From: an uncultured Archangiaceae bacterium
GTDB taxonomy: Bacteria > Myxococcota > Myxococcia > Myxococcales > Myxococcaceae
DNA length: 32,237 nt
Assembly (NCBI GenBank): GCA_965651385.1
Contig: CBFGSI010000086.1
Location: 1-32,237, forward strand
Direction of reading: 5' to 3'
The notes under the pieces are model-generated. The model worked only from the letters and a program-made list of their open reading frames with translations, was not told the DNA's origin and did no database searches. This document shows, piece after piece, positions 27,523-30,905 of the stretch. The position numbers and the translations under genes are program-made. Position 1 is the stretch's first letter, and each line of letters begins with the position of its first letter.

Positions 27523-28865
27523 ACGTGTGGGTGGCCCGCGGTTTCGTGGTGTTGCTGATCATCCTGCTGCCAACGCCGGGAGGGGCCAACGAATCTCCCT
27601 CGGCGGAGGGTACAGCGTCCCATCCAGCAGATGTCTCGCCGGCTAGCGCGTGGTACTTCCTGATGCGCCTGGAGGCGACGATACTGGCGCTGCTGCCGAG
27701 CATGGGAGCGGACGAGGGCTTCGTGCAGGCGGAGCCCACCCTCATCATCGACGGCGGCATGGAGTTCGGCGCCAACCTGGGAGCCCCGCTGCGGCTGAGG
27801 CTGTGGGGAGGTGAGGCGAACCGTGGGCTCGTGCGACGGGAGGACTGGGACAGCCTCTCGGACTGGGGGCAACTCGTGCGCGGCCTCAAGCTGGGCTCGG
27901 ATGACGCGCCCTTCGGCATGTGGGTGGGGGCGCTGGAGGACTACAGCCTGCTCTCCGGGCACCTGGTCCAGCGTTACTCCAACAGGCTCCATCCGGATTA
28001 CCACCCGGCGGGCGCCTTCCTCACTGGCACGCTGGGGCCACTCTACACAGAAGCCTTCGCCTCGGATGTGCTGGGCGCGCGGCTGCTGGGGGCGGAAGTC
28101 TCGCTGGACGTGGAGCACCTCCTCTGGGGCCGGCCCAAGCAACGCGGGCGCTACACACTGGCGTTATCCGCGGTGCATGACTGGGGCCGAGCCGAGGCCA
28201 GGGCTCCCTCGGTGACGCTGGCGCACCTGGACGGGACGGCGGTGCTGGTGGTGCGGCCGGGCTTGGAGGCGCGCCTGCTGGCAGGCTGGGGTGGCCGGCC
28301 GGGCGTGGGCGGCGCATGGGGTGCCGTCGCAGGCGTGGGCGCGGATGCGATGACCCCCACCTTTGACTGCAAGGTGCGGTTGGAGGTGCGACGGCAGCAG
28401 GGCGGCTTCCGGCAGGGTTTCTTCGGCCCGGACTATGAGCTGGCGCGCTTCCAGGCCGCGGGCCCGGAGGAGGTGCCGTTGGCCCATGCGCCGCTTCCAG
28501 ATGGCTTCTCCCTCCATGGCGAGGTGGTGATGGGCTGGGACGCCGTGCGGTATGGCGGGCTGCAACGGCATTGGAGCCTCTCGATCGGTGCCGAAGCCTT
28601 CACCTGGGGGCGCTTCGACGTGGATGGGAGGGTGGCGGCACAACTCCTCGGCCGCAACCTGGAGGTAGCGGTGAAGGGGTTGGCGCTGGGCATGGGGCAG
28701 CCCGGGGCGCGCTATCTGGGCGCGGCGGAGGTGCGCTGGCGTTTCCTCGCCGGAAGCCTGTACGCGCTGGGCACGGGCGGCACGCTGCTGTTCCCGGAGG
28801 CGAATGGGACACTGCGGCCGGGGGCCTTCGCTTCCCTGGGCCTGGGGGTGGACCATGCGCGCTGA
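27523..28865 (+). CDS. Secreted hypothetical protein with N-terminal signal peptide (Gly/Trp-rich, possibly outer-membrane beta-barrel), sitB-like position
   Basis: After a GTG start (27523 or 27529) the sequence is ARGFVVLLIILLPTPGGA|NESPS, a classic signal peptide. The mature part is rich in G, W, L, A and R, with alternating patterns consistent with beta strands. The stop is 11 nt inside the next gene's start (coupled). Confidence 0.5.
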
Positions 28866-30438
28866 CTCGCTGCGACCGGAGTGTGCCGCCCTACTGCTGG
28901 CCGCCGCCTTGCTGACCACTGGCTGCGCACGGCTGACACCTCCGCCCGGCCAGGGAATGCTTCTGAGCGATGCGCCACGCGTTACTGCTGGCCCCGCGCT
29001 AGCGGAGACGCAGAGCGCGGAGCCTCTCCGCGCCCAGACCTCCTCTCCACCCTCCACGCCGGAGCCCGAGGAGCCACAGCGACTGCATCGCCGCAAGAGA
29101 CTCCGGGAAGAAGTGACGAGCGTGGCTCCTGGCAGAGTGGCCGGTGCTTCCGGAGACGCCGTCGCTCGTGGCGCCGCAGGGCCGGAGACTCAGCGCCCCA
29201 TACAGCCCCGGCAAGCCGTCGTTGATGCCATCGACGAAACCTCGGGTAGCATGGGCGCTCTCGCCAGCACGCTCTCCAGTCTCGAGGACCCCCAGGTTGG
29301 TATCGGCGCCCGGGCCAACGGCGTATTCTCCCGCTACTCTCTCTATGGCTCCCACCAGCTTCAGTGGATCCACGGCGCGCTGGGGGGCGCCACCACGCTG
29401 GCCAGCGTAGCCTCCGCAGTTGATGATGCGGACATGGAGTTGGGTCTGCTGCGAATGACGGGCCCTCGGCTCCAGGCCGCCATGTTCGGCTCGCTCCTGC
29501 TCAGTGCATGGCTCGACTTCATCAACCTCGCCAATGCCGTGCTCCGACAGTGCCCCTTCTACAGCGTCGAGGCGCTGTTCATGGACCTGAACCGCGTGCA
29601 GCAGATGATCGAGCCCTCCATGAGGGCGCTCTCCTCTCTAGAGCCAGAGCAGGTCGCGGCTACGGCGGACTGGATGCCAGAGCTGCTGGGCCAGCTCACT
29701 CGCGAGTTTGAAGCCATTCGTGAGGGCGTGCGTCAGGCGGCTGAGAGCGGTGAGGAGTTCATGTTGGCGGCGCAGCTCATGGAGATGATCACCATGGCCG
29801 CGATGATGAGGGTACCAGTACCTCGGCTGCCGCCGGCTGTGCCTCTCAGGCTTGGAGTGGGGCTGGTGATGGGCTCCAACGGCGTGATGATGGGTTCGCA
29901 GGTGGTCGTTTCCGTCGAGTGGGTGGAGCGGATGCGCCAACTCGTGCAGGCGGGCGTCATCTCCATTTACGCCGCCAGCGCTGCGGTCCGCATCCACGCC
30001 GGCCAGGCGATGATGGCGCAAGGGCACCGGGACTTGCCGCGGGGGGTGCGCGAGGCGCTGGGCGACGGGCCCGAAGTTCGTGGCATGCACGAGACCGGCC
30101 GAGCGGGGGCCGGAATGGCCGAGCCGCCGCAGCACCACGTCCTGTCGCGCGAGCATCGAGCGTGGTTCGAGAAGCGTGGCTTCAAGGGCGAGATGAGCAT
30201 CGACCAGTTCTGCGTCGATCTGGAGCTTGCGCACCACCAGGCGATTCATGGGGGTGGTAACTGGCGGCTAGGGCGCACATGGCCCGGAGAGTGGAACCAG
30301 ATGATCGTGAAGGAGCTGCAAAAGGCCGAAACCAGGGTTGGCCGGATGTTGACGAGGAGCGAGATCCTGAAGATCGTCGCAAGGGAAATGAGGCGTTATG
30401 ACCTCCCAATGAACTTCACCCCTTGGAGAGGGCGATGA
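28855..30438 (+). CDS. Lipoprotein with low-complexity linker and C-terminal AHH-motif (HNH-fold nuclease-like) domain, candidate polymorphic lipoprotein toxin (SitA-like)
   Basis: MRADSLRPECAALLLAAALLTTGC is a lipoprotein signal with Cys. It is followed by a Pro/Ser/Glu-rich linker and a Met-rich central escort-like region. The C-terminal ~130 aa are HHVLSREHRAWFEKRGF...CVDLELAHHQAIHGGGNWRLGRTWPGEWNQ, containing an A-H-H motif and a downstream His, as in the Tox-AHH family. Local GC (57-65% in hand-counted 60-nt samples) is below the window's typical ~70%. Confidence 0.6.
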   Translation: MRADSLRPECAALLLAAALLTTGCARLTPPPGQGMLLSDAPRVTAGPALAETQSAEPLRAQTSSPPSTPEPEEPQRLHRRKRLREEVTSVAPGRVAGASGDAVARGAAGPETQRPIQPRQAVVDAIDETSGSMGALASTLSSLEDPQVGIGARANGVFSRYSLYGSHQLQWIHGALGGATTLASVASAVDDADMELGLLRMTGPRLQAAMFGSLLLSAWLDFINLANAVLRQCPFYSVEALFMDLNRVQQMIEPSMRALSSLEPEQVAATADWMPELLGQLTREFEAIREGVRQAAESGEEFMLAAQLMEMITMAAMMRVPVPRLPPAVPLRLGVGLVMGSNGVMMGSQVVVSVEWVERMRQLVQAGVISIYAASAAVRIHAGQAMMAQGHRDLPRGVREALGDGPEVRGMHETGRAGAGMAEPPQHHVLSREHRAWFEKRGFKGEMSIDQFCVDLELAHHQAIHGGGNWRLGRTWPGEWNQMIVKELQKAETRVGRMLTRSEILKIVAREMRRYDLPMNFTPWRGR

Positions 30439-30905
30439 ACGAGGGAAGTTCTTGGCGTGGCAAGTGGAAGGTCCGCCTGTATGAGCGGGTCCGCGAGCGT
30501 GGTTATGATTCGCTCACCGCCTTTGCCGAGGCACGCCCTACCGCTTCACTGGTGGAGTTGGCCGAGGCGCTTGGCGAAGAGGACGTCAACGCGGTGCAGG
30601 TGTTCAGCGGGTTGGTGGCCGAGGCAGAGCGATTCCATCAGGTCACACGCCTGGTCCGTGGACAGCTCGTGCGCGAGCTGTCCGAAGTTCTCCCTGATGG
30701 ATGGCCGGCCGTGCTGGATGACGCAAACCGTTTCAAGGTTGCGATGGCGCTCGGCTCGTGGTCTGCCTACACCCCAGAAACTCACGAGAAGCGCGTCGAC
30801 GAGGCCAGTGATGCGCTGCTCACCACACCGCCGCCGCCCGGTTGGCGCCCGCTCGGTCCAGACGACGAACTCCTCCGCACGCTCTTGCCTGACGAGGAGG
30901 CCTGA
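30435..30905 (+). CDS. Small cytoplasmic protein overlapping the lipoprotein stop (ATGA), candidate cognate immunity protein
   Basis: 157 aa (MNEGSSWRGKWKVRLYERVRERGYDSLTAFAEARPTASLVELAEAL...). No signal peptide. It is translationally coupled to the putative toxin and shares its reduced GC. An alternative TTG start lies at 30423. Confidence 0.45.
   Translation: MNEGSSWRGKWKVRLYERVRERGYDSLTAFAEARPTASLVELAEALGEEDVNAVQVFSGLVAEAERFHQVTRLVRGQLVRELSEVLPDGWPAVLDDANRFKVAMALGSWSAYTPETHEKRVDEASDALLTTPPPPGWRPLGPDDELLRTLLPDEEA

Follow-up and report, generated by a model that had tools for sequence, protein, structure and literature searches.

A predicted sitB-sitA-sitI operon encoding a lipoprotein toxin with a DUF2380-type domain in an uncultured Archangiaceae bacterium

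Three overlapping genes on contig CBFGSI010000086.1 from an uncultured Archangiaceae bacterium (assembly GCA_965651385.1) raise the question of whether this organism carries a complete system of the Sit type, in which a polymorphic lipoprotein toxin (SitA), delivered by outer-membrane exchange (OME), is encoded together with an accessory protein (SitB) and an immunity protein (SitI). The stretch of DNA that we analyzed, referred to below as the window, comprises positions 1 to 32,237 of that contig (32,237 nucleotides). A preliminary description, made from the sequence alone, had read the three genes as a sitB-sitA-sitI cassette, likened the C-terminal domain of the toxin to the AHH-type nucleases, and taken reduced GC content as support for horizontal acquisition. 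We examined the gene products using homology and profile searches, family alignments and structure prediction, and compared the cassette with loci from other genomes (designated L001 to L011). The sitB-sitA-sitI reading is supported by homology as well as by architecture, and we consider it very probable that the region is a functional sitBAI-type operon of the OME polymorphic lipoprotein toxin system, with SitA4 as its most likely family.

All three genes are encoded on the plus strand (Table 1); the first overlaps the second by 11 nt and the second overlaps the third by 4 nt (ATGA), the former overlap implying that sitA translation may be coupled to that of sitB. The public protein collection contains, as P0121, the 446-aa protein made from GTG 27525; an alternative sitB start, TTG 27486, lies upstream of this codon. 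The 11-nt overlap recurs in L003, L007 and L008. The 4-nt overlap recurs, according to gene coordinates, in L001 and L007-L011, and in L005 the sitA open reading frame (ORF) ends 4 nt past the start of the sitI match. The three ORFs are real genes and not chance ORFs, because they have hundreds to thousands of homologs with E-values down to 1e-80 to 1e-250 and because both overlaps recur in unrelated genomes. The three coupled genes are therefore present essentially where the preliminary description had put them (27523-30905), its start being off by 2 nt and its remaining coordinates right, and the small third protein does begin inside the toxin stop codon, as had been proposed.

Table 1. Coordinates of the cassette, its sequence features and a neighboring gene in the window.
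Feature	Position	Strand	Remarks
sitB	27525..28865	+	446 aa from GTG 27525; stop TGA 28863-28865
SitB signal peptide (putative)	27525..27587	+	MWVARGFVVLLIILLPTPGGA, followed by NE; hydrophobic segment ending GGA, judged by inspection only
sitB/sitA overlap	28855..28865	+	ATGCGCGCTGA; 11 nt, sitA ATG 28855 inside the sitB end
sitA	28855..30438	+	527-aa outer-membrane lipoprotein toxin (predicted); stop TGA 30436-30438
SitA type II signal peptide and lipobox	28855..28926	+	LLTTG-C24; +2 = Ala, +4 = Leu, then ARLTPPP
SitA residues 24-32 (+4 Leu context)	28924-28950	+	candidate SitB recognition peptide
SitA variable low-complexity linker, residues 25-115	28927..29199	+	81% P/E/S/A/R/G/T/Q
SitA escort-type domain, residues 116-385 (~270 aa)	29200..30009	+	conserved family-wide; Met-rich C-terminal end
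SitA toxin domain, residues 386-527 (142 aa)	30010..30435	+	DUF2380-type; PF09533 and pMF1.20 homology
His427-His428 dyad (PQHHV)	30133..30138	+	invariant in alignments A1, A2 and A3; aligns with pMF1.20 HH
His461-x3-His465	30235..30249	+	invariant, on a predicted helix; aligns with pMF1.20 H...H
sitA stop/sitI start overlap	30435..30438	+	ATGA, 4 nt
sitI	30435..30905	+	156 aa, presumed cytoplasmic immunity protein; start ATG 30435
Major vault protein (MVP) homolog	24005-26400	minus	Vault, Vault_2, Vault_3, Vault_4 and MVP_shoulder, E down to 5e-45

Judged by its homology, the first gene is a true sitB. An alignment in the supplement to Vassallo et al. 2017 provided the SitA3 sequence of Myxococcus xanthus DK1622 (MXAN_1899), which we rebuilt from it and used as a query to fetch loci. 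In M. xanthus AM003 (L003), which encodes a SitA3 87% identical to that of DK1622, the gene directly upstream of sitA3 specifies a 500-aa SitB that matches the product of gene 1 with 67% identity over 438 aa (E = 0). The stop codon of this sitB overlaps the sitA3 ATG by 11 nt (ATGGCCGCTGA), and the DNA at the junction is similar to that in the window. In Myxococcus sp. 1LA (L002, SitA3 99% identical) the sitB next to sitA3 is frameshifted and is 61% identical to gene 1. The published sitBAI cassettes have the same organization: sitB overlaps sitA by 11 bp in all three cassettes of DK101, SitB carries a type I signal sequence but no domain that could be recognized, SitA has a lipobox, and the immunity gene lies downstream (PMC5562445). 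The N-terminus of the gene 1 product looks like a type I signal peptide, and the protein has no match in Pfam or NCBIfam. It has about 400 myxobacterial homologs, with 65-87% identity among the 120 matches listed; those of the listed matches that have a source name come from Myxococcaceae or Archangiaceae, and some homologs carry source names of the D15, alginate-export or DUF5723 kind. The homolog in M. fulvus HW-1, LILAB_10355, is 71% identical to gene 1, and its locus-tag number is not adjacent to that of any listed SitA1/2/3 gene of HW-1. Comparison of the upstream protein with the SitB family thus bears out the SitB-like accessory protein of the preliminary description with regard to homology and overlap, and its hydrophobic N-terminus would suit a secreted protein.

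The second gene encodes a protein with the domain order expected from the preliminary description: a lipobox cysteine, a low-complexity linker and a Met-rich region are all found in its sequence. Cys24 is invariant in an alignment of 51 family members (A1), and the residue at position +2 is not lysine; absence of lysine at +2 is the rule for sorting to the outer membrane (PMC5562445). Residues 25-115, the linker, form the most variable and indel-rich block of the A1 alignment, and methionine makes up 12.4% of residues 296-392. The search for SitA returned 887 homologs, which share 54-71% identity with it among the 120 matches listed, apart from an exact match from the same contig. Most of the homologs listed cover nearly the full length and are typically about 500 aa long; those with a source name are all myxobacterial, the same-contig match aside, and most of them are annotated merely as "DUF2380 domain-containing protein". 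All 51 aligned members are conserved from about residue 120 to the C-terminus, including the tail IPMNFTPWRGR. The family therefore keeps one toxin domain, unlike SitA1/2, SitA3 and SitA5. In the public annotation of this contig the SitA protein (P0001) is only 395 aa long, 75% of the 527-aa protein; it is truncated at the N-terminus and has therefore lost the signal peptide, lipobox and linker.

Similarity between the window SitA and SitA3 is limited to residues 19-73, that is, the lipobox and the first ~50 mature residues (E 9e-6); BLAST detects no similarity between the escort region and its SitA3 counterpart. The escort region of the window SitA also has no sequence match in Pfam or PDB, and a search of viral contigs with SitA3 found no relative.

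Which kind of toxin does this lipoprotein carry? The C-terminal domain, which contains PQHHVLSREH and LELAHHQAIHGGGNW, is recognized by the Pfam model PF09533 (DUF2380, 187 positions) over model positions 96-173 with an E-value of 7e-6 and 26.0 bits; scores range from 22.7 to 26.0 bits, against a cut-off of 26.3. The same model matches every relative scanned (51/51, 27/27 and 60/60). No match to TIGR02269 was found in the window SitA at E<=1. At the profile level, hhalign relates the toxin domain to pMF1.20 with 96.7% probability and an E-value of 4e-10, aligning the HH pair and both further histidines. The pMF1.20 protein degrades plasmid DNA in vitro, is inhibited by pMF1.19, and was later used as an OME-delivered SitA6 allele (sitAI6pMf1). 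A tblastn search of SitA against plasmids gave no match, although plasmid pMF1 is in that collection; the relationship to pMF1.20 is visible at the profile level only.

In an alignment of 60 sequences with identities as low as about 40%, invariance is restricted to H427, H428, G442, H461 and H465. We propose that H427 and H428, on predicted strand 1, act as general base and metal ligand, and that H461 and H465 may be metal ligands. The literal AHH at residues 459-461, on which the preliminary description had relied, is not conserved: H460, its middle residue, varies among H, R, S, K, T, D and N even within the close family, and the residue preceding the HH dyad at 427-428 is Q, K, R or E, never Ala. 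We conclude that the literal AHH is a coincidental string overlapping one true catalytic histidine; the catalytic signature of DUF2380-type domains would be HH...H-x3-H instead. The proposal of an AHH-type nuclease thus stands insofar as the domain is homologous to a DNase, pMF1.20, and falls with regard to the motif itself. Membership of the Tox-AHH family (PF14412) is not borne out, as this profile does not match the window SitA and is marginal in a few relatives; the profile searches of the C-terminus are consistent for DUF2380 and marginal for Pfam AHH.

An AlphaFold2 model of the toxin domain built from 60 diverse sequences has a pLDDT of 91 and a pTM of 0.75; a shallow alignment of 27 sequences had given a poor model (pLDDT 60), and the diverse alignment was used instead. 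In domain numbering, the model consists of a strand at 35-37 carrying HH, a helix at 41-49, a strand at 62-64, and a helix at 67-73 carrying H-x3-H. The predicted core topology is therefore strand-helix-strand-helix, in other words strand-strand-helix with an inserted helix. The DNases of the colicin type have the pattern HH-x23-H-x3-H. The spacing in the toxin domain is HH-x32-H-x3-H, and the nine extra residues relative to the colicins correspond to the inserted helix. Thus, according to the model, the domain would share with the DNases of colicins E9 and E7 an HH dyad, a strand and then H-x3-H on a helix, and differ from them in the 9-residue helix inserted between the two strands. Profile and fold searches did not detect a significant sequence or fold match of the toxin domain to colicin-type H-N-H DNases, and PDB sequence profile searches with the full-length, toxin-domain and SitI alignments returned nothing significant. 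Taking the DUF2380 profile, the homology to pMF1.20 and the predicted topology together, we conclude that the C-terminal domain is probably a DUF2380-type, His-Me-finger-like DNase.

The third gene is presumed to encode the immunity protein. It has 1725 homologs; among the 120 listed, identity is 78-86%, the exact same-contig match aside. In each of the seven related loci, L005 among them, the toxin domain is immediately followed by a sitI homolog. Many NCBI and UniRef records label this family "NUDIX hydrolase", a label without Pfam or NCBIfam support that is probably a propagated mis-annotation. Three of the related loci have the order sitB-sitA-sitI (L001, L007, L008), and three have sitA-sitI without sitB (L009-L011). 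In L007 (6512-8032) a single sitA is followed by three tandem sitI paralogs of 156 aa, which are 81%, 72% and 71% identical to the window SitI; this is an orphan-immunity array typical of polymorphic toxin loci. In L010 (3400-3545), where sitA has no sitB, the upstream frame nevertheless reads ...AWGWTLRADALLL, like the window junction ...AWGWTMRADSL, and this similarity suggests a secondary loss of sitB in the lineage concerned.

The toxin domain and sitI appear to form a module of their own. Locus L005 (3920-5997, Myxococcus sp. RHSTA-1-4) encodes a chimeric SitA, with no sitB upstream. Its escort domain is of the SitA3 type (60% identity with SitA3) and passes at ...MAQ into a toxin domain that shares 68% identity with residues 387-527 of the window SitA; directly downstream lies a sitI homolog, whose product is 76% identical to the window SitI. 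The module boundary can therefore be placed at about residue 386, where the shared part begins, and the chimera indicates that the toxin domain travels together with sitI from one escort family to another. A profile search with the toxin domain through 1.84 billion representative proteins found 452 carriers; the listed ones are between 58 and about 2,500 aa long, and almost all of them have the domain at their very C-terminus. Of seven long carriers scanned, six (P0370, P0371, P0383, P0395, P0411 and P0445; 700-2500 aa) have eCIS_core (PF13699, formerly DUF4157) at the N-terminus. The toxin domain with which these proteins end is the same (E 1e-30 to 1e-55), whereas their N-terminal delivery region is entirely different, and they have no lipobox, SitB or escort domain. 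The module is therefore common to OME lipoproteins and another delivery scaffold.

How does the cassette compare with the characterized Sit systems? Six SitA families have been described, SitA1/2 and SitA3-7, of which SitA4, SitA6 and SitA7 are non-modular, and all six are TraA-dependent. With SitBAI3 of M. xanthus DK1622 (sitB3-MXAN_1899-sitI3, PMC5562445) the window cassette shares its SitB (67% identity, measured on the AM003 ortholog), the identical 11-nt overlap, an immunity gene directly downstream, and a similar lipobox and first ~50 SitA residues (CA-x-LTP..G.G, the E 9e-6 match). The two systems differ in their escort domains, which have no detectable similarity; in their toxins, a CdiA-type tRNase in SitA3 and a DUF2380-type domain in the window; in their immunity genes, since neither of the SitA3 loci, L002 and L003, contains a match to the window sitI; and in their location, SitA3 being encoded on the Mx-alpha prophage-like element and the window cassette among chromosomal genes, where no genes of mobile elements are seen. 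Membership in SitA3 was therefore rejected, only the first ~55 residues being similar. For SitA1/2 only the lipobox context was compared (TTGCARLTPPP in the window, ASGCASLPARP in SitA1/2), with no sign of membership.

The SitA6 family comprises DUF2380/TIGR02269 toxins paired with double-CXXCG (PF09535) immunity proteins. Like the window cassette, its representative on plasmid pMF1 (pMF1.20-pMF1.19) has a lipoprotein toxin, the homologous nuclease core described above, and an immunity gene overlap of 4 nt. However, pMF1.20 has only 240 aa and no long escort region, as compared with 527 aa for the window SitA; the window SitI has no cysteine, and is therefore not a double-CXXCG protein, and is unrelated to pMF1.19; and the sitAI6 cassettes that have been tested lack sitB. 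In addition, coverage of PF09533 falls short of the full model (positions 96-173 of 187). We therefore rejected membership in SitA6 on the grounds of length, absence of TIGR02269, type of immunity protein and presence of sitB.

The published description of SitA4 of M. fulvus HW-1 (PMC8546572) is closer to what we observed. The SitA4 family has a single toxin domain throughout, published as an AHH/HNH-type nuclease, and sitB in some loci only, being present in SitBAI4-Mf1 and absent from SitAI4-Mf2, both of HW-1 (PMC8546572); the relatives of the window cassette are likewise divided (L001, L007 and L008 as against L009-L011). The tested alleles of SitA4 and SitA6 are AHH-type nucleases that have been described as "not homologous between families".

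If the cassette is such an operon, its action can be pictured as follows. The overlaps suggest that sitB, sitA and sitI would be translated as a coupled unit. SitB would be exported via its putative type I signal peptide and reside in the outer membrane, a location and role transferred from published work on SitB1, and SitA, given its lipobox and the absence of lysine at +2, would be lipidated and parked in the same membrane. Membrane fusion mediated by TraA and TraB would then move SitA into the outer membrane of a neighboring cell, with SitB raising the efficiency of transfer, as known from the literature. There, the ~270-aa escort domain may use envelope proteins of the recipient to bring the toxin domain into the cytoplasm, where the 142-aa domain would act as a metal-dependent DNase of the His-Me-finger type through H427/H428 and H461/H465. 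Clonemates would survive because cytoplasmic SitI binds and blocks the nuclease, as its strict genetic linkage to the toxin suggests.

Several observations weigh against parts of this interpretation. The genes traA and traB are not in the 32-kb window; therefore, the capability of the host for OME is assumed from its taxonomy. We infer the SitA4 label from the published description of that family. SitI has no match in Pfam, NCBIfam or PDB and thus no recognizable fold or family, and the SitI homologs listed are unusually alike (~80% identity), which questions how allele-specific the immunity is. With regard to the toxin, PF14412 matches only a few relatives (3/27 and 1/60, E 0.03-0.07), and the hhalign comparison with the colicin E9 DNase (sequence verified against 1bxi_B) is weak, with an E-value of 0.033 for the pair and a probability of 1.5%. 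This weak alignment places IDQFCV..HHQAIHGG with MDNIRV..RHIDIHRG, and H461 and H465 on H127 and H131, the histidines that are metal ligands in the H-N-H motif.

Did the cassette arrive at this locus by horizontal transfer? The GC content of the window is 68.8%, that of sitB 70.5%, sitA 66.0%, the toxin domain 64.0% and sitI 64.3%, and the arg region has 70-74% in 500-nt windows. At third codon positions (GC3) the values are 85% for sitB, 78% for sitA and 72% for sitI, as compared with 88% in the neighboring MVP gene. The drop is modest, at about 2 SD of 1.5-kb windows, and confined to the 3' half of the cassette. The reduced GC content noted in the preliminary description is therefore real for sitI and the end of the toxin gene, at 64% as compared with 69% in the whole window, but does not extend to sitB. 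In the seven related loci the toxin domain has a GC content of 62-66% and sitI one of 60-70%, against 68-73% in the flanks. Low GC is therefore a property of the module and not of this particular insertion.

The window is chromosomal core, with tdk, prs, the genes for L25, peptidyl-tRNA hydrolase (pth) and S6, dnaB and clpB, and with argR, argF, argB, argH, argG and argC. Upstream of the cassette, on the minus strand, are a membrane protein gene and the MVP homolog, and the cassette is followed, also on the minus strand, by adhesin genes with Ig domains (Big_13). The MVP homolog, a bacterial counterpart of the eukaryotic major vault protein, has a coiled-coil C-terminus, and its own homologs occur with 79-94% identity in soil metagenome contigs with different neighbors. 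We found no tRNA, no flanking direct or inverted repeats, and no integrase or transposase among the ORFs scanned in the window. The neighbors of the cassette differ in every related genome examined. Seven soil-metagenome loci anchored on the MVP gene have no other neighbor in common with the window; they are therefore uninformative on the insertion and show no empty site. Accordingly, the horizontal acquisition proposed earlier has to be divided: mobility of the toxin/immunity module is well supported, whereas a specific recent acquisition at this locus is plausible and not demonstrated, the module being low in GC in all the related loci.

Other explanations of the cassette are less probable. 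The sitA-sitI pair could be mainly an addiction (post-segregational killing) module, as has been proposed for pMF1.19/pMF1.20, and not chiefly an intercellular weapon: its toxin domain is homologous to that of pMF1.20, described as a plasmid-maintenance toxin, the GC content of the module is below that of its surroundings, and its neighborhood is different in every genome examined. However, export of the toxin as a lipoprotein, its escort domain and its own SitB partner are features of intercellular delivery, and the pMF1 allele has itself been put to use as an OME-delivered SitA6, the two roles being compatible; we regard a primary function in addiction as unlikely. It also seems improbable, to a slightly greater degree, that delivery bypasses TraAB-dependent OME, using for example outer-membrane vesicles or a contractile injection system, and that the targets are prey or non-kin species. 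The eCIS_core proteins that end in the same domain, and the absence of traAB from view in the window, would be in keeping with such a route, but the part of SitA before the toxin domain, with its lipobox, linker and escort domain, is peculiar to Sit systems, as is SitB, the source-named homologs of the escort region among those listed are exclusively myxobacterial, and TraA dependence holds for all six SitA families.

Lastly, the cassette might be an inactive remnant or a retained immunity locus, with a toxin that no longer kills and is kept solely for the protection that sitI gives against the toxins of relatives. Accumulation of orphan immunity genes does occur, as the three tandem sitI genes of L007 illustrate, and myxobacterial genomes have 25-80 sitAI loci, not all of which need be active. 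Against this, the three ORFs are intact and coupled, and the four histidines, the lipobox cysteine and all family-invariant residues are kept; the GC3 values of 72-85% indicate coding constraint and therefore also count against decay. Of the three alternatives this is the least probable and we give it very little weight, so that a functional operon for OME delivery of SitA is the reading that we prefer.

Within such an operon, it is possible, although we put this forward tentatively, that SitB recognizes the lipidated N-terminal peptide of SitA (Cys-Ala-x-Leu-(Thr/Pro)-Pro..G.G) and not the escort domain. The CA-x-L peptide region is the only sequence that the window SitA and SitA3 have in common, whereas the two SitB proteins share 67% identity. 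Among the proteins tabulated for SitA1/2/3 (Vassallo 2017), leucine occupies position +4 in 18 of 20 linked to sitB as compared with 6 of 53 unlinked ones (Fisher p = 4e-10, not corrected for phylogeny), and the fetched loci L002-L011 agree with this association, L004 excepted. Additionally, two proteins of 906-907 aa, P0011 and P0017, encoded on contigs of 4.79 Mb and 1.67 Mb, are in-frame SitB-SitA fusions, in which SitB residues 1-443 continue directly into the SitA linker; the SitA part lacks its signal peptide, its lipobox and its first 40-60 residues. Unless they are assembly artifacts, these fusions would constitute Rosetta-stone evidence for a physical SitB/SitA pair, and the deletion of the signal peptide, lipobox and early linker would fit a SitB that holds the SitA N-terminus at the outer membrane. 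If true, the peptide would provide a simple recognition code for a Sit accessory protein that is as yet unexplained.

Sit toxin-immunity loci serve as "identity barcodes" that exclude non-kin from cooperative swarms and fruiting bodies, and each new sit allele is one more determinant of compatibility. A single cassette is routine in genomes that carry 25-80 of them, and the one described here, although intact, is an unremarkable example of a kin-discrimination weapon already known from myxobacteria. The more useful by-products are the mis-annotations that it brought to light, the HH...H-x3-H signature, the possible SitB peptide, and the sharing of modules, by which one toxin/immunity module is common to two SitA escort families and to eCIS-core proteins.

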